Shown piece by piece: positions 17,883-60,355 of a stretch of 64,000 nucleotides of DNA. The position numbers and the translations under genes were made by a program. The notes under the pieces are model-generated. The model was not told the DNA's origin. It saw only the letters and a list, made by a program, of their open reading frames with translations, and searched no databases. Source of the DNA: an uncultured Eubacteriales bacterium (lineage in GTDB: Bacteria > Bacillota > Clostridia > Oscillospirales > Acutalibacteraceae); assembly GCA_934444365.1 (NCBI GenBank), contig CAKSCM010000009.1:1-64000 (forward strand), given 5' to 3'. Numbering within the stretch: position 1 is the first letter of the stretch; each line of letters starts with the position of its first letter.

Positions 17883-18371
17883 TTAAAACCAATCGGCAAA
17901 AACCGAGAAGATTCCGTCGCCGGAATTATCTATAACAACACCGGTATCATCCTCGCCGCCGTTTACATATACGGTCTGGGACACCTCGCGCTTTTGCATG
18001 CCGAGCTCCTTGGCGGCAGCCTCTATGTTATCGTACGCAACGAGGTTTTCAAGCTCCATCGAAAGCCTCGTCTCTTCGCTTTTAAGCTCGGTAAGCTGAT
18101 TTTTCGCCTTATCTATCTGGGCGGTCAGCTCGGTTCCGACCAGATTGCTGTAAAGCTGAAATCCTATAAAGGCCAGCACCATCGCCGTAACACATAAAAT
18201 GCTTATGACTTTCCTCAGCGGCATGGCCGATTTTTCTAAAGAAGCGGCCGAATCTTCGCGCATTACGTTTTTCCTCGTTTTAAGCTCGACCACCTCGCCC
18301 CTTTTTTCCTTGGGTGCGAAGAGGTCAAAATCATATGCAAGGTTATTGTTATAATTCTGCATTTTCGGCAC
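17883..18371 (-). CDS. ftsL: Cell division protein FtsL (septum formation initiator).
   Basis: Small bitopic protein with a TM segment and coiled coil. Lies between rsmH and the PBP gene. Confidence 0.65.
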   Translation of the reverse strand: MPKMQNYNNNLAYDFDLFAPKEKRGEVVELKTRKNVMREDSAASLEKSAMPLRKVISILCVTAMVLAFIGFQLYSNLVGTELTAQIDKAKNQLTELKSEETRLSMELENLVAYDNIEAAAKELGMQKREVSQTVYVNGGEDDTGVVIDNSGDGIFSVFADWF

Positions 18372-18476
18372 TTCCTTTGTTTTTTATGTCAGATATCGGC
18401 AATCAGCCGGTAAAATAATGTTTCCGGCCGGTTGGCCGACCTTGTTTTTCGTTATAAAAACTCTGCTTTCGGTTTT

Positions 18477-19487
18477 CTATTCCTTTATCCGCCGCACGGC
18501 CCTTAGCTTTGCGCTCCTGCTTCTCGGGTTTAATCCAAGCTCTTCATCCGTCGCCGTAACCGGTTTTTTTGTAACCTTTTCGGCAAAGGGCGTTTTGTGG
18601 CAAACACAAACGGGAAATTCCGGCGGACAGGTACATCCTTTGCAAAGTTCAATAAAGCACTGCTTTACTATTCTGTCCTCAAGCGAATGGAAGGTGATAA
18701 CCGCGAGCACACCGCCGACATTTAAAAGTCCGGCCGCCGCTTTAAGCCCTTCTTTCAAAGCGTCGAGCTCTCCGTTTACGGCTATTCTTATCGCCTGAAA
18801 GGTCTGTCTTGCGGGATGGCCGCCCTTTCGCGCCGCTGCCGGATAAGCCTCGGCTGCAATCATAGCCAGCCGGCCGGTTGTATCAATAGGCGATTTCTGT
18901 CGCTCGGCAACAATGCGCGCCGCTATTCTTCTTGCAAATTTCTCCTCCGAATACTCATAAAGTATTCTTGCAAGCTCGTCCTCATCGGCTGTGTTTACAA
19001 TATCGGCCGCCGTAGGGCCCTGCTTTGACATCCGCATATCAAGCGGAGCGTCGGCGTGAAAGGAAAATCCCCGCTCGGCGCAATCAAGCTGAAAGGACGA
19101 AACGCCGATGTCGAGAAGTATTCCGTCGGCACCGGTGATTCCGGCCGCATTTGCAAGTTCGGTCATCTCGGAAAAATTCCCTCTTGCAAATGTTACGTTT
19201 TTATATTTTTCGAGCCGATTTTTCGAAAACTCCAAGGCGTCGGGATCCCTGTCAATACACAAAAGACGGCCGCTTGCCGAAAGTCTTTCGGCAATAAGAC
19301 TGCTGTGTCCGCCAAAACCGACCGTACCGTCTATATAAGTCCCGTTTTCACGGATATTAAGCGCCGCTATCGTCTCTCTTGCCAAAACCGGAATGTGCGG
19401 CGTTTTCGCCTGCCAATCGGTTTCGCAATCGCTGATCTTCGCACCGTTTATATTTGTAACAATGTCCGAATTGTCAGTTTCCTTCAT
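18477..19487 (-). CDS. rsmH: 16S rRNA (cytosine1402-N4)-methyltransferase RsmH/MraW.
   Basis: HIPVLARE...DGTVGFGGHS SAM-MTase motif. Follows mraZ. Confidence 0.9.
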   Translation of the reverse strand: MKETDNSDIVTNINGAKISDCETDWQAKTPHIPVLARETIAALNIRENGTYIDGTVGFGGHSSLIAERLSASGRLLCIDRDPDALEFSKNRLEKYKNVTFARGNFSEMTELANAAGITGADGILLDIGVSSFQLDCAERGFSFHADAPLDMRMSKQGPTAADIVNTADEDELARILYEYSEEKFARRIAARIVAERQKSPIDTTGRLAMIAAEAYPAAARKGGHPARQTFQAIRIAVNGELDALKEGLKAAAGLLNVGGVLAVITFHSLEDRIVKQCFIELCKGCTCPPEFPVCVCHKTPFAEKVTKKPVTATDEELGLNPRSRSAKLRAVRRIKE

Positions 19488-19505
19488 AATATCCGACCCC
19501 CTTTA

Positions 19506-19934
19506 TCAAAAATGGAAATCGATATTCTCAAAGGCCTGTTCGATATTCTCGTTGTCAATGGCGTTATTGCTCTTCTCCCATTTTTCGGCGCTCCAGACCT
19601 CAGCGCGGTTGGAAACGCCCGTTATATACGACGCACCGGCAAGTCCGGCATAATCGCGCAAATGCTGAGGGATAACTATTCTGCCCTGCTTATCGGTTTC
19701 GGCAACGGCAGCTCCTGCCAAAAAGTATCTGGTGATGTCGCGGTTTTCCTTGGTCATCGGAAGGGCCTTAAGCGCCGTTACAAAGCGCTCCCATTCGTCA
19801 AGAGGAAAAAGGAACAAACAGCCGTCAAGTCCTTTGCACATACAAAAACGCTCTCCGAGGTCCGAGCGGAACTCCGAGGGGATTATAAGACGTCCCTTTG
19901 CATCGATATTATGTTGATGTGTACCGAGAAGCAC
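19506..19934 (-). CDS. mraZ: Transcriptional regulator MraZ.
   Basis: Duplicated MraZ/SpoVT-AbrB fold (LLGTHQHNIDAKGRLIIPSEFR). First gene of the dcw cluster. Confidence 0.9.
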   Translation of the reverse strand: MLLGTHQHNIDAKGRLIIPSEFRSDLGERFCMCKGLDGCLFLFPLDEWERFVTALKALPMTKENRDITRYFLAGAAVAETDKQGRIVIPQHLRDYAGLAGASYITGVSNRAEVWSAEKWEKSNNAIDNENIEQAFENIDFHF

Positions 19935-20087
19935 CGCTGTTCACCCCTTTCTCAAAAGCATTTATATAAAATCAACGGCAATCGCCCGGATTTAATCACA
20001 TGATTTAATACATGATCTGCCTTGCAACGCAAAAACAGAGCATAAAACCCGTAAAAACCTCCCGAAACCTCGCCACTTTATGATATT

Positions 20088-20120
20088 TTTGCTCCACTTT
20101 GTGGAACTACGCTCCAATTA
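20088..20120. promoter_or_regulatory. Putative MraZ operator. 10-bp-phased GTGGAGC/TTCCACA/TTGGAGC repeats ~150 bp upstream of mraZ.
   Basis: Repeats seen in sequence. MraZ is known to bind phased direct repeats upstream of its own operon. Assignment is inferential. Confidence 0.3.
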
Positions 20121-20616
20121 TAAATAATATTCAATTAAATTTCAATAGCAAAAATAAATTTTTTTACTTAAAATTAAAATTTTTTTGCCCTCTTGTGTAC
20201 CAAACCGCTTTCACCACCTATATATAGTATACGAACATTCGTTCTATTAAGATAAACAAAAACCCAGTCACACTGCCGGAAAACGGGCTCTATATCAGAA
20301 CGGTTGTTCCGTTTTAACCCCAAAAAACGAAAATCCGCAATAAAACAATTTTGCCGTAATTTTTTGTCACATCATGTTTTCTCATTCCGCTTAACTTTTA
20401 ATAGATTTCATATCACCGCTTTCAGGCGGTATTTGTTAAGCGGATAAAGAGAAATTATAAGCGGCACGCCATCGTCTCCGATCAAACCGGCAGTTTCCGT
20501 AGCAAATAAAAATGCGGCACACGATTTCTCGCATACCGCATTATAAGCTATTATTCTTTTGTCTTTATCAGCCGCATATAAAAGCCTTTTTCAAATTCAA
20601 AGCCTTTATGACAGCC

Positions 20617-22005
20617 TTATTCTCCGGTCTGTTCGTCTAAAAGCAGCAGTTTAACCTCGGTCACCTGTCGTCTTACCGACTCCGGTGCCGGTCCGCCGGG
20701 CACAACACGTCCGTTAACACAATATTCGGGTGATATCTTCTCATAAATATCCTCATCGAACAGGTCGCTTTTGAGTCTATACTCCTCTATCGGAAGATCG
20801 TCAAGACAGGTATCAAGCTCAATGCACCGCTTGACCAACTCGCCGGTTAAGCGATAGGCATCCCTAAACGGCAGTCCCTTAGCCACCAGATAATCGGCCA
20901 CATCGGTGGCATTTATAAAGCCGAACGAGGCGTTCCTTCGCATATTCTCCTTCCTTACGGTCATGGTATTAACCATCGGAGTAAAGGCGTCAAGACACAT
21001 TTTAACCGTATCAACGGCGTCGAAAACAGCCTCCTTATCCTCCTGCATATCCTTGTTGTAAGCAAGCGGCAACCCCTTCATAACGCAAAGCAGCGCATTA
21101 AGGTCACCGAACACCCTGCCAGATTTTCCCCTTACAAGCTCGGCTATATCGGGATTTTTCTTCTGAGGCATTATGCTCGAACCGGTAGAAAATGCGTCGT
21201 CCAGGGTAACATAAGAAAACTCGCCCGAGCACCAGAGTATTATCTCCTCCGAAAATCTCGAAAGATGTACCATTATAAGGGAAAGGGCACTAAGCAGCTC
21301 TATAACAAAATCCCTGTCGGAGACCCCGTCAAGGCTGTTTGCGGTTATCCCGTCCATACTTAACAGCTCGGCAACGCGTTCGCGGTTTATCGGGTAGGTC
21401 GTACCGGCAAGCGCGCCGCTGCCGAGCGGAGAAATATTCATCCGTTTTTTGCAGTCGTCGATACGTCCGGCGTCGCGAACAAGCATATATGCGTACGCCA
21501 TTAAATGATGACCGAAGGTAATGGGTTGAGCACGCTGCAGATGGGTGTATCCGCACATCACGGTATCGGCATATTTTTCGCTTAAATCACACAGCACCCC
21601 AATGAGCTTTACGACTCGTGATTTAATTTCGTCCGCCTCGCGCAACAGATAAAGCCGTAAATCGAGCGCCACCTGATCGTTCCGGCTTCTGGCGGTATGC
21701 AGGCGTTTTCCGGCGTCGCCTATGCGAGCGGTAAGCTCACCCTCAACAAAGGAATGTATATCCTCGCTGGTCATATCGATCTTAAGCTTTCCCTCTTCAA
21801 TCTCTTTTAGTATATTTTTAAGGGTAGCGACTATCAGTTCGGAATCCTTCTTCTCGATTATACCGCATTCGCCGAGCATTGTGGCGTGCGCCATGCTGCC
21901 GAGTATATCCTCCTTGTACATTCTGCAATCGAATGATATTGACGAATTAAAATGATCGGTCACCTCGTCGAGCTTACCGTGATAAGCTCCTGCCCAAAGC
22001 TTCAT
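20617..22005 (-). CDS. argH: Argininosuccinate lyase ArgH.
   Basis: Fumarate-lyase signature GSSIMPQKKNPD. Start set at the conserved MKLWAG. Confidence 0.9.
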   Translation of the reverse strand: MKLWAGAYHGKLDEVTDHFNSSISFDCRMYKEDILGSMAHATMLGECGIIEKKDSELIVATLKNILKEIEEGKLKIDMTSEDIHSFVEGELTARIGDAGKRLHTARSRNDQVALDLRLYLLREADEIKSRVVKLIGVLCDLSEKYADTVMCGYTHLQRAQPITFGHHLMAYAYMLVRDAGRIDDCKKRMNISPLGSGALAGTTYPINRERVAELLSMDGITANSLDGVSDRDFVIELLSALSLIMVHLSRFSEEIILWCSGEFSYVTLDDAFSTGSSIMPQKKNPDIAELVRGKSGRVFGDLNALLCVMKGLPLAYNKDMQEDKEAVFDAVDTVKMCLDAFTPMVNTMTVRKENMRRNASFGFINATDVADYLVAKGLPFRDAYRLTGELVKRCIELDTCLDDLPIEEYRLKSDLFDEDIYEKISPEYCVNGRVVPGGPAPESVRRQVTEVKLLLLDEQTGE

Positions 22006-22420
22006 GCTTAAAACCACCTTGTTTTTCTTAGACTTGGCCGCTATACGGCAGCGAACAAAAGGGGTTTTAAAAATCCCCATTAACATCGCACCTTAAACGT
22101 ATATATAATATACTCCAAAAAGCTCCTGAATGGAAGTGTTTTTTAATAGTCTATATTGTAAATTAAACTATTCGGCTTATCTTTCGGTCTTTTAAGCAGC
22201 TTAAATAAGCAAACGGGATACAGAATCCCTGCCAAAACCCACACCGTAAACAATAAAAGCGCACGGTATACCATTTAATAACAGGATATACAGTGCGCTT
22301 TTTGCTTTTCCTTAACAGTACCGAGCAGACAAAAGGCGTACCGAACGAAATTCTGACGGTATTTTCCCGATTTTGCCGCTTTCGTGGTGTATTTATCAAG
22401 CAATTACTATATCAAAAGGA

Positions 22421-23680
22421 TCAGAACTTTCCGCCGCCACCGCCGTGCGTTGTACCCGACGATGAGGTATGTGTGCTGCTTCCGCCGGAGCTTGAGGAAT
22501 CATTATCCTTCGGCTTAGCCGTACGGCTGACCGTAGAATAAAGGAACATATCACGGCTCTCGCGGACATTCATGCTGCCGGGCTTTACATAGCTGTCGGC
22601 CGCCGCCGCAAAGCTAACGCTCCTTAACTTGCTCTTCATACCGCCGACAACCGCCGACGCAATAAGAATCCCTACGACAAGGGAGATCGGTATCCATATG
22701 AGTGAGAGCGGATCATGCGGTAAGTTGCCGACATCGTACGGCTTTCCGGTTTCGACCGCATTTGTCACAAAACGATCTACCTCGTTTGCATATATCCTGA
22801 AGGCCTCGGCATAATCGCCGTCGGAAAGATAACCGGTAAATTTGTCGGCAATATACTCCCTTCCGGCATCGGTAATGGCGGCAATTCCGTAGCCGGTAGT
22901 GGTAATATACCAATCCCTGTCCTCCATGCTTATAAGAAAGAGCACACCGTCCTTGTTTTCGCCGAACCCGAATCCGCTGTAATCATAAAGATCGTCGGCA
23001 TACTCTCTGGGCGTTTTCCCCGAGAGGGAATTGACGGTGGCTATAACAACGTCGAACTTCTGGCGCTCGCTTATCTCGTCAAGCTTGGCCTTTATTTCGG
23101 CCGCTTCGTCACTGCTGAGCAAGCCTGCCTCGTCCATAAGTCTCGGATATGTGCTTTGCGACACCTTGCTTTGAGCACCCGAGGTTACACTGCCGGTTCC
23201 GGCTGCAGACGAACGGGAAATTATGCTTTTTGCCGAGTTCAGATACGCCGTAAATCCGTCGGCATAGCTCATCTCATAGTTATATGCATCCCAAAAGCCT
23301 TCACAGTCGGCATTTGTAAACATACCGTCGCATTTGCCGGTTTTCCGAACAACGTATTCACCCTCATCCTCGTTAAGGACAAGCATAACGGAGTCCTGTT
23401 TACTAATACCTATTCCGCCGTAATTTTCGGCATATTTTCCGAGGCTGTTCGCTCCCTGATGATAGTCGTCGGTTATGAGCATTAAAACCTCAATACCGTA
23501 CTCGTCATATATGTCGTCGGCAAGCTCGTTTGCAGCGTCAAGAGCGGCATCCGGCGCATTCATGGTCTCATCGATAAAATACTTTGCCCCGTCGGCGCCT
23601 GTCATCACCGAAAAAGACGCAAGCGAGACGAGCACCGCAACCAAAAGGATAAAAATTGATTTAAGCTTTTTACCGGTCAT
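22421..23680 (-). CDS. TPM-domain (DUF477) membrane protein, YdjH/YgcG-like, with tandem TPM regions and a Gly/Ser-rich C-terminal tail.
   Basis: Signal/TM N-terminus, two TPM-like blocks, a C-terminal TM, then a GGSSTHTSSSGTTHGGGGG tail. GGAGG RBS at the chosen start. Confidence 0.65.
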   Translation of the reverse strand: MTGKKLKSIFILLVAVLVSLASFSVMTGADGAKYFIDETMNAPDAALDAANELADDIYDEYGIEVLMLITDDYHQGANSLGKYAENYGGIGISKQDSVMLVLNEDEGEYVVRKTGKCDGMFTNADCEGFWDAYNYEMSYADGFTAYLNSAKSIISRSSAAGTGSVTSGAQSKVSQSTYPRLMDEAGLLSSDEAAEIKAKLDEISERQKFDVVIATVNSLSGKTPREYADDLYDYSGFGFGENKDGVLFLISMEDRDWYITTTGYGIAAITDAGREYIADKFTGYLSDGDYAEAFRIYANEVDRFVTNAVETGKPYDVGNLPHDPLSLIWIPISLVVGILIASAVVGGMKSKLRSVSFAAAADSYVKPGSMNVRESRDMFLYSTVSRTAKPKDNDSSSSGGSSTHTSSSGTTHGGGGGKF

Positions 23681-23694
23681 ATTTTCATCCTCCC

Positions 23695-24789
23695 TTAAAG
23701 TATTCCGGCAAGCCAGAGCAGCCATGCTATTAAATATGTAGCGCCGCCGGCGATAAGGGTTACAAGCCACCGCCATTTTCTTGCGGCCGCTTTATCCACC
23801 GGGAGGTTGCCAACAAATTTGCCGGTTTGACCGTTCATGGCGAAAATGTACCTTTCGCCCTTCCATGTGGTGTTAAGAATCCACACCGGATACAGCGCAT
23901 ATCGCGCGTGGCCGTTGCTCAGGGATATACCCGAGCTTTCCGGAACAACGCTCGAATACCCCTGCACCGTTTTTTGAAACGCCTGCTCGGTCGAGTGTTT
24001 TACACGCTCGTCGGCACGGGTTATGCTCTGCTCGGACGAAACGTCGTATTTATCCGCCATGTAACCGGCAAGATAGGCCGTCTGGAACTCCTTTACGTCG
24101 GCAAAATCATACGGCTCAACCGATTCCATAAGATCATCCGGCATTTTCGACGAGCCGTCAACCGGAACATGCTCAAAGCTGATACTACCGGCCCTATGCA
24201 CAAGAAAATAGCTGGTTTCGGTGTAATCGTAATCGCTGTCGCTCCAAAACCTAACCTTGGTCGCACGGTAGCGTATGGTCGCATCCGCATCGGTATCAAA
24301 AAGCCAGAACGGAACATATACACCCTTTATCTCGTCAATGTGGTTTTCATCCTTAAAGACCTTAGGCAAAAGCCTCTTGCCCTTAAGATGATTGGAAAAT
24401 CCAGCCTTGGCGGCATTTTTATCGAGTTTAAACGGAATTATAAAATCCGGTTTCAGCGCACCCGAAAGCTTACCGGTCATAACCACCGGATTCGAGCAAT
24501 ACGGGCAGGTTGACGCCGCCGTATTTTCGTCGCACACAATTTCGCCGCCGCATGAATTACAAACATAGGTACAAAGCCCGTCGGCCTCGCCCGAAGACCA
24601 CTGTGCGCCCGGGGTATTCTCCCAGTTCATGTTATCCGAGATATCGTTTTTCAACTCGGCATCGTAATTCTTAAGCGTTTCAAGCTCAAATTCGGTGTCG
24701 CAATAAGGACACTTCATTTTTTGCAGCGCACTGTCAAACGCAATCGCACCGCCGCAACACGGGCACTTGTACTCCAGTAAATCGGACAT
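23695..24789 (-). CDS. Double-zinc-ribbon membrane-anchored protein (YdjG-like).
   Basis: Two N-terminal CxxC...CxxC ribbons (CPCCGG..CPYCD; CNSCGG..CPYCS), a central globular region, and a C-terminal TM helix. 14-bp gap to the TPM gene. Confidence 0.6.
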   Translation of the reverse strand: MSDLLEYKCPCCGGAIAFDSALQKMKCPYCDTEFELETLKNYDAELKNDISDNMNWENTPGAQWSSGEADGLCTYVCNSCGGEIVCDENTAASTCPYCSNPVVMTGKLSGALKPDFIIPFKLDKNAAKAGFSNHLKGKRLLPKVFKDENHIDEIKGVYVPFWLFDTDADATIRYRATKVRFWSDSDYDYTETSYFLVHRAGSISFEHVPVDGSSKMPDDLMESVEPYDFADVKEFQTAYLAGYMADKYDVSSEQSITRADERVKHSTEQAFQKTVQGYSSVVPESSGISLSNGHARYALYPVWILNTTWKGERYIFAMNGQTGKFVGNLPVDKAAARKWRWLVTLIAGGATYLIAWLLWLAGIL

Positions 24790-25056
24790 CTGCATATCCC
24801 CTTTTCAAAAAAACTAAATGCTGCACCAACCATAAAAACGTCAAAAGCTCAGGTGTTTTCTGAACGCATGACGGTCCTTCTCCTTCACGATACAGCATAA
24901 TGACCGCAAATATAAACCATATAAATTATATTCGCGGCCATTTGATCTGATTAATGTAGTTAAGTATTGCACCCGAATTAAGTATATCGCCCAAAAAATA
25001 AGCTTTTTCGGATAAACGGTATTCTCCTTTTTCAGATGCAACAAAAATATTTTAAA

Positions 25057-26397
25057 TTACTGTTTGTCGTTATCGTCGAAAACGTCGCCGCACTCAGGGC
25101 AGAACTTCGGCGGATGGGTGGGATCCTCCGGCTGCCAGCCGCATTTATCGCAGCGGTAAAGCGGTGCGCCTTCAGGCTTTTTAGCTCCGCAATTCTGGCA
25201 GAACTTGCCTTTATTGACTGCTCCGCACGAGCAGGTCCATCCTTCTTCGGCCGGTTTTTTTGCTCCGCATTCGGTGCAGAAATTACCCGTCGCCACAGCG
25301 CCGCACGAGCATTTCCAGCCGCCCGGCTGATTAGCTGCCGGCGCGCTCTTTGCGGCCGATTGCTGTGCAGCCGCCTGCTGTGCCGCTTGCTGCTGGCTCA
25401 TAGCGTAAAGATCCTGTGCATTAACGCCGCCGGTATTCATGGCCATCCCCATGCCCATAAATCCGGTAAAAGCACCTGCTTCATTCGATGCTGCCGCCTT
25501 CATGGCGTCGGCCTGAGCGCCGACCAGGGTTGCAGCAGCCATGCCGGGATCGCGCATCATACCGGTGCGCTGCGCCTGCTTTATCATATCGGCGTCTTCC
25601 TGCGGCAAATCGACATTGCTCAGCGCAATGCTCACTATCTTAAGACCTCTGAGCTCGCCCCATTTGTTTGAGAGCGTCTCGTTCATCGCATCTTCCAGCT
25701 CGGCATTATGCGCGGCGATTTGATTCGGACGCATTTCAAGCTCCGACAGCTTTGCAAGAGCCGGACGCAAAGCGCTTATGAATTCTGATTTGAGCTGTTT
25801 ATCAAGCTCCTCGCGGCGGTATTCGTCGCTGACATTACCGCAGACGTTGGTGTAAAAGAGTATCGGGTCGGCAATACGGTAAGAATAAACACCCGAGCAG
25901 CGTACCGAAACATCGACATCGAGACCTATTTTCGAATCGACCACACGGAAAGGAACGGGACTCGGAGTGCCGAAAAGATTTTCAAGCAGCTCCTTGGTGT
26001 TGAAGTAATAAACCCTCTGATCCTTGGCGGTATCTCCTCCGTAGGTAAAGCGCTTACCGATGGTTTTAAAGGTGTTTATTATCCCCTGTCCGAGTTTGCC
26101 GGCAAAAAGGCTCGGCTCGGTAGAAGAATCATATGTATACTCACCCGGCTCGGCGCAAAACTCAACCACCTTACCCTGTTCGACTATTATCATACACTGG
26201 CCGTCGGCAACGGCAATGCCCGAACCTCTCGAAATTATGTTGTCGTTGCCCTTGGTATTGGACGAACGGCCGCTTATCTGTTTACGGCCCTTTACCATAA
26301 GCACTTCCTTGTCAAGCGCCTCACAATAGAAAAATTCCTTCCACTGGTCGGCAAGGGTACCGCCTAAGGCTCCGACTCCGGCTTTTATAAGACCCAT
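25057..26397 (-). CDS. SPFH/Band-7 domain protein (COG4260 'virion core protein'-like, YdjI-like). It has a Gln/Ala-rich linker and four C-terminal zinc ribbons.
   Basis: N-terminal SPFH-like region and a QQAAQQAAAQQ linker. Then CSCG..CTECG, CSCG..CQNCG and CDKCG..CPECG ribbons. Confidence 0.65.
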   Translation of the reverse strand: MGLIKAGVGALGGTLADQWKEFFYCEALDKEVLMVKGRKQISGRSSNTKGNDNIISRGSGIAVADGQCMIIVEQGKVVEFCAEPGEYTYDSSTEPSLFAGKLGQGIINTFKTIGKRFTYGGDTAKDQRVYYFNTKELLENLFGTPSPVPFRVVDSKIGLDVDVSVRCSGVYSYRIADPILFYTNVCGNVSDEYRREELDKQLKSEFISALRPALAKLSELEMRPNQIAAHNAELEDAMNETLSNKWGELRGLKIVSIALSNVDLPQEDADMIKQAQRTGMMRDPGMAAATLVGAQADAMKAAASNEAGAFTGFMGMGMAMNTGGVNAQDLYAMSQQQAAQQAAAQQSAAKSAPAANQPGGWKCSCGAVATGNFCTECGAKKPAEEGWTCSCGAVNKGKFCQNCGAKKPEGAPLYRCDKCGWQPEDPTHPPKFCPECGDVFDDNDKQ

Positions 26398-26567
26398 AAT
26401 AAATACTCCTTTCAGATAAAAAACCGCCGAAAAAAGTCAAAACGGTTCTATATATGGTAATTGTAACACATAAATCCGGTTTAGTACAGCAAAAATTTAT
26501 ATTTTTAAGTATATTCGCAAAACCCGGCATGTCATTCGCATTCAAAAGGATGTTTAAAAAAAATCAA

Positions 26568-26610
26568 AGCAAAAAAATTAAAACCGGAAAACCCGCAACG
26601 GGCTTCCCGG
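26568..26610 (-). terminator. Rho-independent terminator downstream of jag.
   Basis: Hairpin ccgggaagcccg-ttgc-gggttttccgg followed by a U-run on the minus strand. Confidence 0.5.
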
Positions 26611-26694
26611 TCATTAAATCAAATTAAATTAACTGTTATAATCCGCAACAAAAGCAGATTAAAAAGCTAAACAAACCCTCTGTTTTTGTTAAGC

Positions 26695-27753
26695 TTATGC
26701 TTTTTTATCGATCCGGCCGTACAGCGGCGCCGTATCCATGTCCTTTTTCTGCTCGCGGTCAGGAGCGGATGTGGTGACCGGTCTGTCATTGCGCGGCCTG
26801 CGCTGATAGGAACGTCCTCTTGAATAAGAGCCGCCCCTCGAATCGCGGCGTCCCGAATCACGTCGGTTGTTGTAGGTTATATGGCCGTCCTTCGATGTAC
26901 CGATTACAACACGGCGATAAGGCTCGCTGCCTATTGACCATGAGGTTATTCCCTCAATGTCATGCACCGTCATGTGTATTATGCGGCGCTCGTAGGGATT
27001 CATCGGCTCAAGTGCGATATTCTTGCCGCTTTTAAGAGCCTGTGAAGCAATCCTCGAGGCTAAGGTCTGCAACGCCTTCTGGCGCTTGTTACGGTAGTCG
27101 CCGGTATTAAGCAGAATTCTCTGATAAGCGGTCTCGGAACCGTTTGCGGCAAGCACAGTAAGGTACTGAAGCGCATCAAGGGTCTCGCCTCTTCTTCCGA
27201 CAACGGCGCCTATGTTATCACCCTCAAGGGTTATTTCTATTCCGCCGTCGTAATCGCTCATGGAAATCTCGGCTTCTATATCCATGCAGGACAAAACCTT
27301 GGTGAGATATTCCTCGGCGCGCCGTGCGGTTTTAAGCTTTTCCTCGTCGGTGATGGGCCGTTTTTCGAATATATCGGCCTTTTCGCCGTCGGTTGTATCC
27401 TGAGTCTGAGAATCAGCCGGCTTTTCATTTTCCTTTTTATCTGCTTTCTCAGCCTTTTCGGCACGGACGGGTCTCGAGCTTCTTTGTGGCTTAAGGTCCT
27501 TTTTTCTATCGCGCTCGGGCGCGGCGGCACCGACCGGCTTTGTACCTGCCGGGTCTGCCTTCACCTCGTCCTCAAGCTCAATATACGCCCTTACCTTAGC
27601 CGGGCAACCGCCGAAAAGACCAAGGGTCTTTTTCTGCGGCATGTCGATTATCTCATATTTTACATCATCATCAATACCGGCGCCGAGCAATAATGCGGCG
27701 GCCTCGCGGGCCTCATCGACGGTAGCGCCGGTGGCGATAGCTTCCTTTATCAA
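26695..27753 (-). CDS. khpB: RNA-binding protein Jag/KhpB (Jag-N, KH and R3H domains).
   Basis: Domain order and the conserved position downstream of yidC. Confidence 0.8.
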   Translation of the reverse strand: MIKEAIATGATVDEAREAAALLLGAGIDDDVKYEIIDMPQKKTLGLFGGCPAKVRAYIELEDEVKADPAGTKPVGAAAPERDRKKDLKPQRSSRPVRAEKAEKADKKENEKPADSQTQDTTDGEKADIFEKRPITDEEKLKTARRAEEYLTKVLSCMDIEAEISMSDYDGGIEITLEGDNIGAVVGRRGETLDALQYLTVLAANGSETAYQRILLNTGDYRNKRQKALQTLASRIASQALKSGKNIALEPMNPYERRIIHMTVHDIEGITSWSIGSEPYRRVVIGTSKDGHITYNNRRDSGRRDSRGGSYSRGRSYQRRPRNDRPVTTSAPDREQKKDMDTAPLYGRIDKKA

Positions 27754-27787
27754 GGTTACACCTCCGAATATTTGAGCGAGACGAAAA

Positions 27788-28729
27788 CTACGCCTCGGTA
27801 CTTTCGATTATTTTCTTTTCTCTTTCCCTACGTAAATTCACGGTTTTCACTTCGCCGCGGGCTATTATCTTATAGGGCGACATATGCTTGTTGAGCAGCA
27901 CCTGAATGAGCATTCCGAGAAGATTCGAGCACATCCAGTAAAATCCTACCGCACCCGGTACTATAAAGGAAATGTAAAGCGACATAAAGGGCATAAGGAA
28001 CATCATGCAGCCCATATTTGCCGCTGCTTCGGGATTGGTCTTTTTCTGCATTCTCGTGGTTATCCACGACGAAAGGAAGGCCGAAGCAAAGGATGCCAGC
28101 GGAATAAGCCACAACAGCAGATCCGCTCCGGTAAGCTCCGAAAAACGCAAGGTAAACTTCGGCGTCTGGGTAAGATCGATACCGAAAAGGTTAAAGTCCA
28201 TTCCCCTTACACCGTCTACAATAGGCGCATATTCTGGATCGGTAAGTCCGGAAACGTTATGAATTACATCAAGCTCGGTTATCTGAGCGACCGTTTTGCC
28301 GAGGGTGTTCGCCACGGACTCCATAGCCTTGGAAATAAGCTCGGAATTTATATGCAGAATGTAAGAAAGCGGACTTCTTATAGCCATCCACACACCCCAC
28401 AAAAACGGAAGGGTTATCAGCTGAGGCAAACAACCGCCCATAAGCTTTACACCCTCACGGCGGTAAAGCTCCTGCATTTCCATATTATATTTCTGCTTGT
28501 CGTCGCCGCATCTTTCCTTAAGAGCATCAAGCTTGGGCCTTACGGCGGTCTGCTTGGCCGTGGCCTTTTGCTGATTTATGTTAACCGGTAAAAAAACCAG
28601 TTTTACAAGCAATGTAAATACTATTATCGCAACGGCGTAATTTCCGAGTGGGCTCCATATCGAACCGAGCAGATTATAAAGCTGCTCGAGCACCCAACCC
28701 ATGGCGCTGTAAATATACTTCAAAATCAA
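27788..28729 (-). CDS. yidC: Membrane protein insertase YidC/SpoIIIJ.
   Basis: Polytopic 60-kDa-IMP family protein in the rnpA-yidC-jag context. Confidence 0.9.
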   Translation of the reverse strand: MILKYIYSAMGWVLEQLYNLLGSIWSPLGNYAVAIIVFTLLVKLVFLPVNINQQKATAKQTAVRPKLDALKERCGDDKQKYNMEMQELYRREGVKLMGGCLPQLITLPFLWGVWMAIRSPLSYILHINSELISKAMESVANTLGKTVAQITELDVIHNVSGLTDPEYAPIVDGVRGMDFNLFGIDLTQTPKFTLRFSELTGADLLLWLIPLASFASAFLSSWITTRMQKKTNPEAAANMGCMMFLMPFMSLYISFIVPGAVGFYWMCSNLLGMLIQVLLNKHMSPYKIIARGEVKTVNLRREREKKIIESTEA

Positions 28730-28818
28730 TTCCTCCGGCCGTAATCGCGGCCATCATCAAAAAAATCCTTGGTTTAAGGCTCTGATGCCTTTTGTTTTGG
28801 GTTATTTTGGTATTGGGA

Positions 28819-29076
28819 TTATTCCGGCTTTTCAGGTTTTCCCGGCTGCTTTTTTTCCGCCGTTTTTTCGGGCACCGGATCATATCCGCCTGCATGGAAC
28901 GGATGACATTTCAGTATCCGTCTTAAAGCAAGCCAACCGCCCTTAATTGCCCCAAAACGCTCAATTGCAGTGAGCGCATACTCCGAGCATGTCGGCGTAA
29001 AACGGCAACACGGCGGTTTTAAAGGGGATATTCCCTTTCTGTAGGCGGTTATGAGAAAAATAAGTAGCTTTTTCAT
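28819..29076 (-). CDS. yidD: Membrane protein insertion efficiency factor YidD.
   Basis: 85 aa with the conserved [10 protein letters not shown] and HPxxxGGYDPVP motifs. Confidence 0.85.
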
Positions 29077-29128
29077 TTTTTACTGCCGGTTTCATGCTTT
29101 TTGTCCGGCCGTTTACGGCGCTTAACCG

Positions 29129-29491
29129 CTATTCACATATGACATTAAGCTTTAAAAGCTGCCGCCGCATCTCCCGTGCGACATCGTTCATATTAACCGA
29201 TGCCGTCCTCGTTCGCGCGACAAAAACAAGGTCATAGCTACCCGTTATTTCGGGATACAGCGCTCTGAAGGCTTCCCTTATAACCCTTTTGGAGCGGTTG
29301 CGCTCGACGGCGCCGCCGACCTTTTTGCCGGCGGTAATTCCGTAACGAACGGCATTGCCTTTGCCTTTTGTACAATAGGTTACAAGCGTAGATCCGACAA
29401 TATACTTTCCACGTGAATATAACCGGCGAAAATCATGGTTTTCCTTTAATACAACAGGCTTCAAAGGTAATCCCCCGTTCAGGTAAAACAA
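29129..29491 (-). CDS. rnpA: Ribonuclease P protein component RnpA.
   Basis: Basic 120-aa protein with an RNR-like motif (KRVIRE). Sits between rpmH and yidD. Confidence 0.85.
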   Translation of the reverse strand: MFYLNGGLPLKPVVLKENHDFRRLYSRGKYIVGSTLVTYCTKGKGNAVRYGITAGKKVGGAVERNRSKRVIREAFRALYPEITGSYDLVFVARTRTASVNMNDVAREMRRQLLKLNVICE

Positions 29492-29505
29492 GATACTCAG
29501 CGCTT

Positions 29506-29640
29506 TTACGCGCTAAGTACCTTGCGGCCCCTTGCTCTGCGACGAGCCAAAACCTTGCGGCCGTCTGCGGTGGACATTCTTTTACGGAAACCGTGCACCT
29601 TGCTGCGATGACGCTTTTTAGGCTGATAAGTTCTGATCAC
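29506..29640 (-). CDS. rpmH: 50S ribosomal protein L34 (GTG start).
   Basis: My own translation gives [52 protein letters not shown]. It was not in the ORF track because it is under 60 aa. Confidence 0.9.
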
Positions 29641-29949
29641 ATCAATACACTCCTTTCAAAACGCAGGGCTAAATATAATAAAATACATAACACAAATTGC
29701 TGTCCAACACAAAAAGGACGCGACCCTGCGAATTTAAATTTTACTATAAATCCAACGCAATGTCAACACAAAATTTCTCATTCTTTCAATTAAAGAGCTT
29801 AGAATCCATCCGCACTGTTTATAGTTATGATATTCTCCGAAAACCGCCTGAACCAAACAGGCCCTGCGACTTAAAATCAAGAAGCAGAGCCCGTTCGGTA
29901 TTGGAAGGAGATACAGTTACAAAACTGTGGAAATGTCGTAATTTTTATA

Positions 29950-31521
29950 TCAGCTGTTGGCCGTTCCGAGGGTTATTTTTACGGTGTAAAGCTTATTCTG
30001 CCTGTAAACCGTGAGGGATATCGTCTCACCCGGAGCATATTTCGCCTTTTCGCTGTTGTACATGGTAAGGCTGGTAATATCGGTGTTATTGAACTGGGTT
30101 ATTATGTCGCCGCGCTGTAATCCCGCCGACTCGGCCGGACTTCCTTCGCTTACCCTTTCGACTACAACACCCGACGGATATCCCATCATATTGAGACGTT
30201 CGGAGGTATAATAGCTGCTTATATCAAGTCCCAAATATGCCTGCGGCTCGTCGACGTTTTCGATTATTCTCTTGCAGATCGAAACAACGGTGTTTGACGG
30301 AATGGCAAAGCCCATTCCCTCGTATTCGGTAGAGGCAAGCTTTGCACTGTTAAGGCCGATAAGAAAACCGTTAGAGTTAACAAGCGCACCGCCCGAGTTG
30401 CCGGGGTTTATGGCTGCGTCGGTCTGAATAAGGTTTACATATTCGCCGGTGTTTTCCATCTGAATGGTACGGTTAAGGCCGCTTATTATTCCGGCGCTCA
30501 CCGAGCCCATAAACTGCAATCCGCCGGGATTTCCGACCGCGACGGCGGTGTTGCCGACCTTGACCTCGTCCGAGTCGCCGATCTCTATTGCGGTAAGACC
30601 GGTTTTTTCGATTTTTACCACGGCCAGATCGGCACTGACATCGTATCCTATAACCTTGGCATCAATAGCCGTTTGTGGATCGCTCGGCAAAAAGACCGAT
30701 ATGCTTCCGTTGTTTTCGACCGCTTCGGATATAACATGATAATTGGTCACTATATATCCGTCGGAGGAATATATGACCCCCGAGCCTTCGCCGCTTTTAT
30801 CGGTGGATCCGTAAAAGAAATAATTGACCGAGAAGGTGGTCCTTATCCCGACGACCGAAGGCGATACCTTTTCGGCAATGGCCTCAACGAGCGAATCCGA
30901 GCTGCTCTCGACTATATTTATCTGTTTTATTGCACTGTCCTCGGAGTCATATGACTCGGTCACCGATGTGTCGTTCCCGTCGCCGGTGACTATTCCGGTT
31001 TTTCCGGCCAGCATAAAGGCCATGGAGGTGCAAACACTCGATATTATAGCGCACACAAGTGCGATTGACACTATCATTCCCACCGTAACGTTGGTGGTTT
31101 TTTGGGTGTGCTTATGACCCTTGGGATTTTTACCGTCATGCAGCGAAACCGGAACCACCGGCTGATTGTCCTGATGAGAACCGTACCCCGGCATAAAGGT
31201 TATTTCCTTTTGAGGGGTAAAACTGTTGACCGTCGGCCCGGGATTCGGAGCGTTTTCAAAGCCGCTTTCGGCCGCCGTATTTGATGTAAAGCCGCCTGCC
31301 GGAGTATCGCTTGCTCCGTTTACCGCCGGATCGCTGCTGTCCCGGTATAAAAAACCTCCGTCGGCCGGATTAATATTATGATCGTTTTCCGATGATTCGG
31401 ACTGAATACCCGCAAATCCGGCGGATTCCTCCCGGCCGTCCGTTTTTTCCGAAAAGCCTTCTTTGCCGCCCATGATACCGTTTTCATTATTGATATTGTT
31501 TTTGTTATCAAAGCTATCCAT
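29950..31521 (-). CDS. HtrA/DegP-family trypsin-like serine protease with PDZ domain, an N-terminal disordered region and a TM anchor.
   Basis: Catalytic GNSGGAL motif, a C-terminal PDZ, and a TM helix (VGMIVSIALVCAIISSV). Start set at the RBS-supported second ATG. Confidence 0.85.
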   Translation of the reverse strand: MDSFDNKNNINNENGIMGGKEGFSEKTDGREESAGFAGIQSESSENDHNINPADGGFLYRDSSDPAVNGASDTPAGGFTSNTAAESGFENAPNPGPTVNSFTPQKEITFMPGYGSHQDNQPVVPVSLHDGKNPKGHKHTQKTTNVTVGMIVSIALVCAIISSVCTSMAFMLAGKTGIVTGDGNDTSVTESYDSEDSAIKQINIVESSSDSLVEAIAEKVSPSVVGIRTTFSVNYFFYGSTDKSGEGSGVIYSSDGYIVTNYHVISEAVENNGSISVFLPSDPQTAIDAKVIGYDVSADLAVVKIEKTGLTAIEIGDSDEVKVGNTAVAVGNPGGLQFMGSVSAGIISGLNRTIQMENTGEYVNLIQTDAAINPGNSGGALVNSNGFLIGLNSAKLASTEYEGMGFAIPSNTVVSICKRIIENVDEPQAYLGLDISSYYTSERLNMMGYPSGVVVERVSEGSPAESAGLQRGDIITQFNNTDITSLTMYNSEKAKYAPGETISLTVYRQNKLYTVKITLGTANS

Positions 31522-31653
31522 ATATGTCAACTCCCGTAGGGTTTTGTAAGACATTATTACGACATCTAAAACAAACGCTGTCTTTGTTTTTCTGATTGTA
31601 TTGTATTCCTATTATGTGAATAATTAATTAAGAAGGTTTGCATATTTCGTAAA

Positions 31654-34883: not shown

Positions 34884-35669
34884 TTACTCGCCGTCCCTTG
34901 CGTCGACAATAACTCCGCTGTCGCCCATTACGTTGGGCAGCTTTCCGTCCCATTTGTTCCATTTTACATACTCGACGTAATCCGGCGAGGCTGACAATGC
35001 GTCCTGAATGAGCTTTATGCTCTCGGCCTCGGCCTGAGCCTGGGTAACCTGCTGTTTGGCCTCAACCTCAATACGGGCTAAATCCTGCTCGGCCTTAAGA
35101 GCATTTTGCTGGGCAGTCTGCTTGGCCTCTACCGCGGCGTTGAATTCGTCGGAAAAATCGAAATTCACGATATTGAATATCTCTACGACAATTCCGTATT
35201 CGCCAATCTTTTCCGAAAGGGCGGATTTTATCTGATCACCCACGCTTTGCCGCTCGGTTATAAGCTCCTCGGCCGTATACTGAGCCGCGACCGCCTTAAT
35301 GCTTTCCTGTATGGCCGGCGAAATAATAACGTTGCTGTAATCGCCGCCGACATTTTTGTAAACCGAGGCCGAAGCGGTTGTATTAACGCGGTAGTTTACC
35401 GCGACAACATACGACACTATCTGCAAATCCTTCGAGGAGGCAGTGCCGTCGGTCTCGATCTTTTGGGTGCGGTTGTTAACCTGTATTACCTTCTGGACAA
35501 AGGGCGTTTTAAAATGAAGTCCCTCCGCAAGCACATTATCGGACACCGCTCCGAAGGTGGTAACAACGCCGGTATGACCCGACTCGACCACCGTAAAGCA
35601 GGACGATATAACAGCAATGACTATTACGGCCAACACCGCCCATAAGCCTATTTTTACCGGTTTTTTCAT
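34884..35669 (-). CDS. SPFH/Band-7 (prohibitin/stomatin-like) membrane protein.
   Basis: N-terminal TM, SPFH core, and a C-terminal coiled coil (EAKQTAQQNALKAEQDLARIEVEAKQQ). GGAGG RBS at the chosen start. Confidence 0.8.
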   Translation of the reverse strand: MKKPVKIGLWAVLAVIVIAVISSCFTVVESGHTGVVTTFGAVSDNVLAEGLHFKTPFVQKVIQVNNRTQKIETDGTASSKDLQIVSYVVAVNYRVNTTASASVYKNVGGDYSNVIISPAIQESIKAVAAQYTAEELITERQSVGDQIKSALSEKIGEYGIVVEIFNIVNFDFSDEFNAAVEAKQTAQQNALKAEQDLARIEVEAKQQVTQAQAEAESIKLIQDALSASPDYVEYVKWNKWDGKLPNVMGDSGVIVDARDGE

Positions 35670-36168
35670 AACTTCCTCCGAAAATATATTTTTCTGAAAC
35701 ATGTCAAGTATCGCACCCGATAGGTAAAAAACGATTCTTACCCTTTGTCGGTGCAGCACAAGGCGTAATTTCCGAAATACCGCTTTATTCAAAAAGACCC
35801 ATACACAAATCCGGAATTTGCGTATGAGTCTTATTCTTTAAGGACGGACCGAGGAGATTTATCAGTTCTCCCGTGATGACGATCCCATCCCGCGTATTCC
35901 GCGGAACTACTCCCTCATATTTCATTATTTACATATTACCACCTTTATTTTCTTTTGTCAAGATTTTTGTGTTGCCCGACCGATCTATAAGCACTCTTAT
36001 TTTGTCGTTTCTAAAAACAATTTCCGTTATTAAAGCACTTTTCTTTGCGTTTTTTGCACAAAAAAGTATTGTAATTACTCCCCCGCTGTGATACAACATA
36101 CCCGTCGATAATCCTATAAGCCGTTCACTCACCACAGACGTGACGGCTTCGACATTAAGGAGGGACAA

Positions 36169-59511: not shown

Positions 59512-60355
59512 TTAATCCATTGTTCTCCTTACTGTGTGCATTCCTGTATTCACGCGGGGTCAGCCCGGTGTCGTTCTTTAAATAACGCGAAAAATTCCCT
59601 CCGGTCGAAAAGCCGGTCTCCTCGGCGATCTTGGAGGCGCTGAGACTGGTCGAACAAAGCATATCCTTCGCAATCGACAGCCTGTGCTCCGATAAATATT
59701 CCATCACCCCGTAGCCCGTTATCTCCTTAAACAGATGGGAAAGATAGCTTTTTGAAACATGGTGTTTTTTTGCCAGAATGTCAAGGGAATAAAAGGCCGA
59801 ATAGTTATTTTCGAATTCCTTTTGTATATCCTCCACTATTGTGTTTTTTACCGTCGCCTTCATCGGAAAGCTCTCGGGCGAAAAACGGTAAAGGCGGATA
59901 AGCAGAATTCTAAGCAACGATTTTTGCATTTCGTCGACAAAAAGCCCCGACTCCGAATACTCCCTTGCAAGACATTTGAATACCCATTCGATGTCCTCCG
60001 CTATATCCGACACGTCAATAAGGTGATTAAAGAATTCCGGACGGTTCGAAAAAATTGAGCAGATCGTGCTGTTTTTTATCGCATACCGCACCGAAACCGG
60101 TGAAACCTGTATGCAATAGCGCTCGTAATCGTCGGTAAGCGGTTCGACCGAATGCTGTTCGAGATTGCTTATAAAAAATACGCTCTTTTCGCCGACGAAA
60201 TAATCCTTTCCCGAACAGCGGATATGGGCCTTCCCCCGGCGGATATAAAGAATTTCGTGACAATTATGATAATGCACGGCAAAACCGTTGCTTCCCGAAG
60301 CAAAATATGCGGTCTGTATAAGAGAGTTATCCATAACGTATTCCACCTTTTCCAT
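59501..60355 (-). CDS. AraC-family transcriptional regulator (N-terminal cupin sensor plus C-terminal HTH).
   Basis: C-terminal AraC HTH (…HHVSKSYLSHLFKEITG…LSASKIAEETGFSTGGNFSRYLK). Confidence 0.85.
   Translation of the reverse strand: MEKVEYVMDNSLIQTAYFASGSNGFAVHYHNCHEILYIRRGKAHIRCSGKDYFVGEKSVFFISNLEQHSVEPLTDDYERYCIQVSPVSVRYAIKNSTICSIFSNRPEFFNHLIDVSDIAEDIEWVFKCLAREYSESGLFVDEMQKSLLRILLIRLYRFSPESFPMKATVKNTIVEDIQKEFENNYSAFYSLDILAKKHHVSKSYLSHLFKEITGYGVMEYLSEHRLSIAKDMLCSTSLSASKIAEETGFSTGGNFSRYLKNDTGLTPREYRNAHSKENNGLNEF

Follow-up and report, generated by a model that had tools for sequence, protein, structure and literature searches.

A YdjGHI-type gene trio without linked pspA and with a rare second TPM domain in an uncultured Eubacteriales bacterium

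The pspA-ydjGHI (pspA-samGHI) operon of Bacillus subtilis is the sole studied example of its kind, and it has mainly been read as a tether for PspA. What, then, does a ydjGHI-type module do where no pspA lies beside it? The question is raised by three genes on the minus strand of contig CAKSCM010000009.1 (assembly GCA_934444365.1) from an uncultured Eubacteriales bacterium. Herein, we analysed positions 1 to 64,000 of this contig, referred to below as the window, in which the genes occupy 22421-26397. A first-pass annotation, made from the sequence alone, had described them as consecutive minus-strand genes for an SPFH protein, a double-zinc-ribbon transmembrane (TM) protein and a TPM protein, and had likened them to B. 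subtilis ydjG/H/I. The open reading frame (ORF) map of the window confirmed three co-directional genes in the order G1 (SPFH), G2 and G3 (TPM), and direct BLASTP found all three proteins to be homologous to their B. subtilis counterparts, with the same Pfam signature. Judged by sequence, the trio is a Clostridial version of the YdjI/YdjG/YdjH (SamI/SamG/SamH) module, and the locus is a typical Clostridial trio of this type with a rare second TPM domain. It is rather likely to be an autonomous unit for envelope-stress sensing and scaffolding that works without a linked PspA.

Gene calls on metagenome contigs with an identical G1 gave proteins of 446, 364 and 419-420 aa for G1, G2 and G3, respectively. 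The three genes are as follows.

25057-26397, minus strand: G1, soluble SPFH protein of 446 aa (Pfam Band_7_1; BLASTP to YdjI)
23695-24789, minus strand: G2, tail-anchored double-zinc-ribbon protein of 364 aa (BLASTP to YdjG; gene calls)
22421-23680, minus strand: G3, type-I membrane protein of 419 aa with two TPM domains (Pfam TPM 1.9e-41, two stretches)

The start of G3 was placed at ATG 23680, which has a GGGAGG ribosome-binding site and lies 14 bp past the G2 stop. The start at 23776 given in the ORF list was rejected as an over-extension overlapping G2, the gene calls giving 419-420 aa.

The reference operon was recovered by scanning metagenome contigs with the published 5' end of ydjG (a 30-mer from the primer table of Scholz et al. 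2021, PMC8581546), which returned two loci. Locus L099 is a B. subtilis-type operon encoding PspA (227 aa), YdjG (341 aa), YdjH (254 aa) and YdjI (323 aa); both termini of YdjG, YdjH and YdjI agree with the published primers, and PspA differs at one residue near its N-terminus. Its Pfam assignments are PspA_IM30, Zn_Ribbon_TF, TPM, and Band_7_1 plus Zn_ribbon_3 (YdjI). In pairwise BLASTP, G2 matched YdjG with 35% identity over 357 residues (E 3e-78), G1 matched YdjI with 22% over 359 residues (E 1e-13), colinearly through the linker and ribbon, and residues 165-419 of G3 matched full-length YdjH with 24% (E 4e-14). Since YdjH aligns in full with this part of G3, the surplus of G3 is its N-terminal TPM block. 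Of the domain families looked for with hidden Markov models (HMMs), SPFH was recovered above the gathering score in G1 (Band_7_1, 5.3e-19 and 69.1 bits with a cut-off of 24; Band_7, 4e-6 and 27.4 bits with a cut-off of 23.6), as was TPM in G3, but DZR remained sub-threshold. The family had been called barely characterised; two experimental studies in B. subtilis do exist (PMC8581546; bioRxiv 10.64898/2026.02.06.704340).

We surveyed the family in 80 species-representative loci, which are the best 80 of at least 596 genome matches to a G2 alignment. Neighbouring genes were scored with HMMs built for this analysis, and ORF lengths are upper bounds, counted from the first possible start codon. 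The G2 family comprises 1,553 clusters at 50% identity (E <= 1e-30). Of the 60 loci whose upstream sequence was long enough to judge, 56 have a co-oriented SPFH gene ahead of G2, and in 76 of 78 loci a TPM gene directly follows G2, which bears out the co-conservation of the three genes in related genomes. The SPFH-first order had been listed as a peculiarity of this locus; it is true here but not distinctive, being the same in those 56 species. Species with a G1 that is 77% or 68% identical to that of the window have unrelated flanks, indicating that the three genes move together. More remote G2 homologs, at 22-30% identity, immediately follow a Band_7_1 gene in Enterococcus (where TPM comes third), Vibrio, Comamonas and Tsukamurella, with no pspA, and a TPM gene usually accompanies the SPFH-G2 pair in the Firmicutes examples (Clostridia, Enterococcus). 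A cross-phylum profile search for homologs was dominated by gut Clostridia and reached no Bacillus, and no Bacillus module was found by searches of the plasmid collection with G2 and with the SPFH domain of G1. A PspA-free, SPFH-first module across phyla was not found described in the literature searched.

Two observations may be added to the survey. One Enterococcus trio (L092, NZ_CP116511.1) lies on a 484-kb Enterococcus gallinarum 'plasmid' that also bears dnaX, recR, tmk, holB, rplK, rplA, rplJ and rplL, and from this housekeeping gene content the replicon looks like a chromosome fragment or chromid. A related SPFH protein of Monoglobus (44% identical) has a TIM44-like protein encoded before it, not a YdjG-type one.

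PspA was searched for with three seeds, namely the E. coli protein, a stand-alone Niallia PspA, which was all that the E. coli protein recovered from the plasmid collection, and the PspA of the B. subtilis-type operon, with PF04012 confirmed. The seeds detect one another at 1e-12 to 1e-16. When the three seeds and a profile were run without filters, the best E value in the 64-kb window and the flanks of the 80 loci (up to 10 kb per side) was 0.79. The missing adjacent pspA reported for this locus is therefore real, as none was found in the window, but it does not set the locus apart, since none of the 80 related loci has PspA in its flanks. Given that SPFH-first without pspA is the common arrangement, the Bacillus operon is the variant.

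Because pspA is unlinked both here and in the relatives, we favour, with moderate confidence, the autonomous envelope-stress unit. Hydropathy and the positions of the cysteines predict that G1 and G2 (bar its last helix) are cytoplasmic and that G3 alone has a sizeable part outside, made of its two TPM domains, with its tail of ~70 residues (...HGGGGGKF) inside. In B. subtilis, YdjG and YdjH are both required for the membrane foci of YdjI, and YdjH interacts with YdjI and with YdjG (PMC8581546). That YdjG and YdjH bring YdjI to the membrane, and that YdjI in turn damps their signalling, is known from B. subtilis experiments only (PMC8581546; bioRxiv 10.64898/2026.02.06.704340). By analogy with these genetic and two-hybrid data, G2 and G3 would form a membrane platform. 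G3 would report the state of the envelope, with its extra TPM domain enlarging the external sensing part, and G1 would be recruited to the platform, oligomerise and restrain G2/G3 signalling. The ribbon array of G1, carried on a flexible linker, may dock cytoplasmic clients, of which PspA is one in Bacillus. Several points weigh against this proposal: all of the interactions are carried over from B. subtilis, with whose YdjI G1 shares just 22% identity; a PspA may be encoded outside the 64 kb searched; and the 261-nt spacer between G1 and G2 could uncouple G1 from transcription of G2-G3.

The main rival holds that the trio tethers PspA in trans: it would function just like the B. subtilis module, but on a PspA/IM30 whose gene lies at another place in the chromosome. 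In its favour, the PspA foci of B. subtilis depend on YdjI (PMC8581546), most bacterial lineages are reported to have PspA, and PspA-free operons of PspA partners have been suggested to use PspA from elsewhere (PMC11237479). However, PspA was detected neither in 64 kb here nor in the flanks of the 80 related species, linkage to pspA was seen only in the Bacillus-type operon, and SamGHI has phenotypes that are independent of PspA (bioRxiv 10.64898/2026.02.06.704340). We consider a tether in trans to be possible, if on the unlikely side.

The stretch between G1 and G2 is as follows.

24796-25056, minus strand: G1-G2 spacer of 261 nt with three long predicted hairpins, species-specific (RNA fold)

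The predicted fold of the spacer has an energy of -77.1 kcal/mol (z -4.75), which none of 200 shuffles equalled, and its hairpins include a 16-17-bp stem at spacer positions 115-157. The locus had been said to have a 260-bp promoter-like gap here. The gap is real, at 261 bp, but it is not promoter-like, for a consensus scan of the spacer gave no sigma-70 promoter match; it gave no terminator match either. Rfam had no match within the spacer, no ORF was present in the three coding-strand frames, and neither a second copy within the window nor similarity to the other loci examined was detected. A remnant of the accessory genes known from other species' loci was also considered and was rejected. 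The length is uncommon: the SPFH-G2 gap is at most 150 bp in 42 of 56 loci, 150-700 bp in 6 and above 700 bp in 8. The structured spacer may, speculatively, set the ratio of G1 to G2/G3 expression. If instead G1 and G2-G3 were two unrelated transcription units that are adjacent by accident, an unusually long gap (shared by only the 6 of 56 species at 150-700 bp), a highly structured spacer and the 4 of 60 species with G2-TPM but no adjacent SPFH gene would all fit. Yet the genes stay adjacent and in this order in 56 of 60 species and in four phyla, the gap has no promoter or terminator consensus, and the three proteins are physically and genetically interdependent in B. subtilis (PMC8581546). 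Two separate units are thus improbable.

The features of G3 are as follows.

23156-23605, minus strand: extra N-terminal TPM block, residues 26-175 (Pfam TPM 28.9 bits alone; gathering score 22.1)
22721-23155, minus strand: canonical TPM domain, residues 176-320, counterpart of the YdjH TPM (Pfam 121.5 bits; gathering score 22.1)
22625-22717, minus strand: TM helix, about residues 322-352 (hydropathy)
22424-22483, minus strand: conserved C-terminal tail motif, ...GSSTHTSSSGTTHGGGGGKF-COOH, predicted cytoplasmic (alignment of homologs)

From its N- to its C-terminus, G3 thus has a signal-like segment, the two TPM blocks, the TM helix and ~70 residues of tail. The duplicated TPM blocks that had been proposed were borne out, each block scoring above the Pfam gathering score alone, and they are rare in the family: a homologous extra N-terminal block was found only in L014, L042 and L048 (3 others of 76), where it is 24-27% identical to that of the window. 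The two blocks of G3 share ~20% identity (self-comparison E 0.001), which indicates an old duplication; a recent tandem duplication was rejected on the same figure. G3 also has sequence matches to solved TPM structures (7tbr and 2kw7). Such matches would suit a further alternative, in which G3 is an extracytoplasmic phosphatase or nucleotidase and the SPFH protein organises some unrelated client, for instance a protease, after the pattern of HflK/C-FtsH or stomatin-NfeD; the TPM family includes reported phosphatase or ATPase/ADPase activity (cited in PMC11237479), and SPFH proteins often cage proteases (cited in bioRxiv 10.64898/2026.02.06.704340). On the other hand, no linked protease or NfeD gene was seen in the window or in the surveyed loci with gene calls inspected, the conserved partner is a YdjG-type adaptor and not an enzyme, and the catalytic activity of TPM is disputed (PMC11237479). 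We regard an enzymatic role of this kind as very unlikely.

The tail of G3 had been taken for a Gly/Ser/His-rich difference from B. subtilis. It proved instead to be a conserved family motif that is also visible in YdjH. The motif was read in G3 of the window, in the TPM proteins of L007 and L010-L090 where present, and in L092. Its family consensus is G-S-S-T-H-x-S-S-S-G-x-x-H-G-G-G-G-G-K-F-COOH; the terminal Phe occurs in 75 of 80 TPM homologs, His at -8 in 61 of 80 and His at -16 in 60 of 80. The terminal Phe is shared by Enterococcus (...GGGGRSF; L092 7119-7925) and by YdjH (...GSRGSF), and a conserved RD(L/M)FLY...R(T)AKPK stretch lies between the TM helix and the tail motif. The tail sequence resembles a peptide for docking or metal binding, not ordinary low complexity. 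One TPM gene of the survey (L008 12526-13319, GCA_964261755.1) is split into calls of 120 and 99 aa; near-identical loci have a 264-aa gene, and the split is probably a frameshift or sequencing error.

G1 carries the proposed docking array, and its parts are as follows.

25567-26244, minus strand: SPFH (Band_7_1) domain, residues 52-277 (best Pfam stretch)
25318-25551, minus strand: low-complexity linker, Met/Gly- and then Gln/Ala-rich, about residues 283-360 (sequence)
25267-25311, minus strand: zinc ribbon 1 (CSC...CTEC), type-A repeat unit, variable in copy number between relatives (Cys knuckles)
25189-25233, minus strand: zinc ribbon 2 (CSC...CQNC) (Cys knuckles; DZR sub-threshold in Pfam)
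25090-25152, minus strand: zinc ribbon 3 (CDKC...CPEC), a distinct terminal ribbon (Cys knuckles)

No hydrophobic segment was found in the hydropathy of G1. Four C-terminal ribbons had been counted in this protein, but the six Cys knuckles make three 4-Cys ribbons, which is the modal number of the family: 2, 3, 4 and 5 ribbons occur in 4, 30, 20 and 1 species, respectively. The variable unit of the family reads W-x-C-x-C-G...F-C-x-x-C-G-x-K-K-P and is followed by a constant terminal ribbon, whose type in G1 is kept in 7 of 7 close relatives inspected (P0004-P0116). The Q/A-rich linker likewise loses its standing as a distinguishing trait, because YdjI has already been described with a low-complexity linker, which aligns with that of G1, and with a C-terminal ribbon (PMC8581546; PMC11237479). 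TRF reported a 12-nt repeat in the linker DNA. An origin of the ribbon units in tandem-repeat DNA was rejected, TRF finding no array there. The C-terminal module of the Band_7_1 partner differs by lineage, with zinc ribbons in Firmicutes, GYF_2 in Vibrio and Tsukamurella, and a helix-turn-helix (HTH, by annotation) in Comamonas.

L093 4903-5994, L095 4661-5809, L094 4606-5706 and L097 4999-7251: loci of these Band_7_1 partner variants and of the Monoglobus case above

Eight surveyed loci have insertions of between one and six accessory genes that separate the SPFH gene from the YdjG-type gene.

L010 11503-15349, L012 6649-9687, L013 5706-9971 and L019 4456-10001, together with L038, L049, L054 and L065: loci with inserted accessory genes

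The recurring accessory families are a DUF4428+DZR protein ('MGLFDKKYCDICGEK...'), a 250-aa protein with a weak DUF4428 match, a TM+Zn_ribbon_3 protein, DUF3592-like single-TM proteins and lipoproteins. The insertion loci occur at six separate places in the G2 tree, and at least four ribbons were present in the SPFH tail of all 8, compared with 16 of the 51 loci without insertion (Fisher p = 3e-4, in a test that ignores kinship). A broader proposal can be offered only tentatively, and we think it doubtful at present: the trio or the SPFH-YdjG dyad would be an ancient autonomous envelope-sensing platform to which coupling with PspA was a late addition in Bacillus, and the ribbon array would be a modular docking rack, its extra type-A ribbons going with zinc-ribbon accessory clients (DUF4428 and others), while the His-containing TPM peptide would be a further docking or metal-binding element.

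G2, the proposed platform partner of G3, is divided as follows.

24496-24765, minus strand: two N-terminal 4-Cys ribbons (residues 9-30 and 77-98) and the stretch between them (Cys pattern)
23800-24462, minus strand: core, about residues 110-330, two alpha+beta units of PepSY/cystatin/NTF2-like type (cytoplasmic by topology)
23698-23769, minus strand: single C-terminal TM helix, residues 341-364 (hydropathy; helix 333-360 in the model)

The ribbon cysteines are C9/C12-C27/C30 and C77/C80-C95/C98. All eight are invariant in a 37-sequence alignment; across phyla, seven are invariant and C27 is kept in at least 90%. No Pfam family scored above threshold for G2, core included, and the likeness of the core is to YpeB/PepSY, the same as published for YdjG (PMC11237479). 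The structure model was obtained from the diverse alignment A2 (pLDDT 88); a model from a shallow 15-sequence alignment (pLDDT 50) was discarded. In two G2 homologs, P0121 (531 aa) and P0123 (485 aa), ~120-170 core residues are directly repeated within the protein. Each homolog comes from a single metagenome contig, so that an assembly artefact and a real duplication are indistinguishable.

The surroundings of the trio were examined for transcription signals.

26582-26612: strong terminator of jag, with the promoter-like site of G1 just downstream of it
26508-26535, minus strand: promoter-like site ATGACA-16-TATACT 5' of G1 (consensus scan only; not evidence of function)
22248-22302, minus strand: intrinsic terminator 3' of G3, GC-rich hairpin and U-tract (sequence; fold -27.1 kcal/mol, z -3.0)

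The trio is thereby bracketed by the jag terminator and the promoter-like site upstream and by a clean intrinsic terminator downstream. Upstream of G1, Rfam gave two sub-threshold, chance-level matches only, at 26472-26615. The strict sigma-W pattern TGAAAC-N16/17-CGTA had one chance-level match in the window, distant at 60101, and this pattern also misses the reference operon.

On one side the trio is flanked by the origin-proximal genes rnpA-yidD-yidC-jag and on the other by argH, which is followed by the division/cell-wall (dcw) cluster mraZ-rsmH-ftsL-pbp-murE (window 17883-31554). In relatives it is located elsewhere, with Sua5/upp/cdd and a Tad pilus cluster as neighbours in one case, malQ and a pst-type transporter in another. 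The window has one more SPFH gene at 34884-35702 on the minus strand, ~8.5 kb from G1; its 272-aa product is membrane-anchored and of the classical Band_7 type (PF01145 2e-38), and related contigs have a 46-aa ORF called upstream of its counterpart. A role of the trio in anti-phage defence, or as cargo of mobile elements, can be set aside as most improbable, for although its genomic context differs among species and a recombinase is encoded ~2.9 kb past the TPM gene at one locus, none of the three proteins had a PADLOC match at E <= 0.01, viral contigs held neither G2 relatives nor the ydjG primer string, and the flanks in the window are the housekeeping genes jag, yidC and argH and the dcw cluster. 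Collectively, the first-pass annotation was partly confirmed in what it observed and partly supported in how it interpreted the locus.

The trio can finally be placed beside known systems. HflK/C-FtsH and QmcA-YbbJ (stomatin-NfeD) likewise have an SPFH oligomer and an operon-encoded membrane partner that is organised or restrained, which is a functional analogy (bioRxiv 10.64898/2026.02.06.704340); HflK/C and QmcA, however, have their own membrane anchor and a classical Band_7 domain, whereas G1 has no anchor and is of the Band_7_1 type, and their partners are unrelated to YdjG or TPM. E. coli PspABC offers another analogy, with the same proposed logic of a membrane sensor pair checked by a peripheral regulator, and SamGH and PspBC are not homologous (bioRxiv 10.64898/2026.02.06.704340). 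Of the three Psp proteins PspA was the one searched for, and it was not found in the window.

The nearest relatives are the trios of SPFH, hypothetical and TPM proteins of gut Clostridia and Enterococcus, known from database annotation only. They have the same order, the same ribbon-tail type and the same TPM tail motif as the window, and no pspA; identity to them is 75-81% for G1 (P0026: 68%) and 60-73% for G2. Most related trios differ from the window in having a single TPM (about 250-315 aa) and an SPFH-G2 gap of at most 150 bp, and some have DUF4428/zinc-ribbon genes between SPFH and G2. The locus itself adds nothing surprising to the family picture, being an ordinary member of a widespread, little-studied family.

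With the B. subtilis proteins the likeness extends through all three members: YdjI and G1 are both soluble Band_7_1 SPFH proteins with a low-complexity linker and a C-terminal zinc ribbon, YdjG and G2 both have two ribbons, a YpeB-like core and a C-terminal TM helix, and YdjH and G3 both combine TPM with a TM helix and a tail whose last residue is Phe. In both, G is followed by H in tight coupling, with 14 bp here and a 4-bp overlap in the reference. The differences lie in the gene order (I-G-H here, G-H-I in the reference, so that the SPFH gene is first and not last), in pspA (unlinked here, present in the reference), in the ribbons (three in G1, one in YdjI), in the extra N-terminal TPM domain of G3 and in the 261-nt structured spacer 3' of the SPFH gene; the B. 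subtilis operon is sigma-W dependent. The wider pattern, in which the SPFH and YdjG-type pair travels without pspA, is of moderate interest for SPFH and Psp research. This PspA-free distribution fits the 2026 finding of PspA-independent SamGHI roles and suggests that Bacillus is a derived case. Natural variation could serve as a guide to experiments on the roles of the ribbons, the TPM ectodomain and the tail, as Clostridia have 2-5 ribbons where YdjI has one, other lineages have GYF or HTH modules instead, TPM is single or tandem, and the accessory genes are optional.

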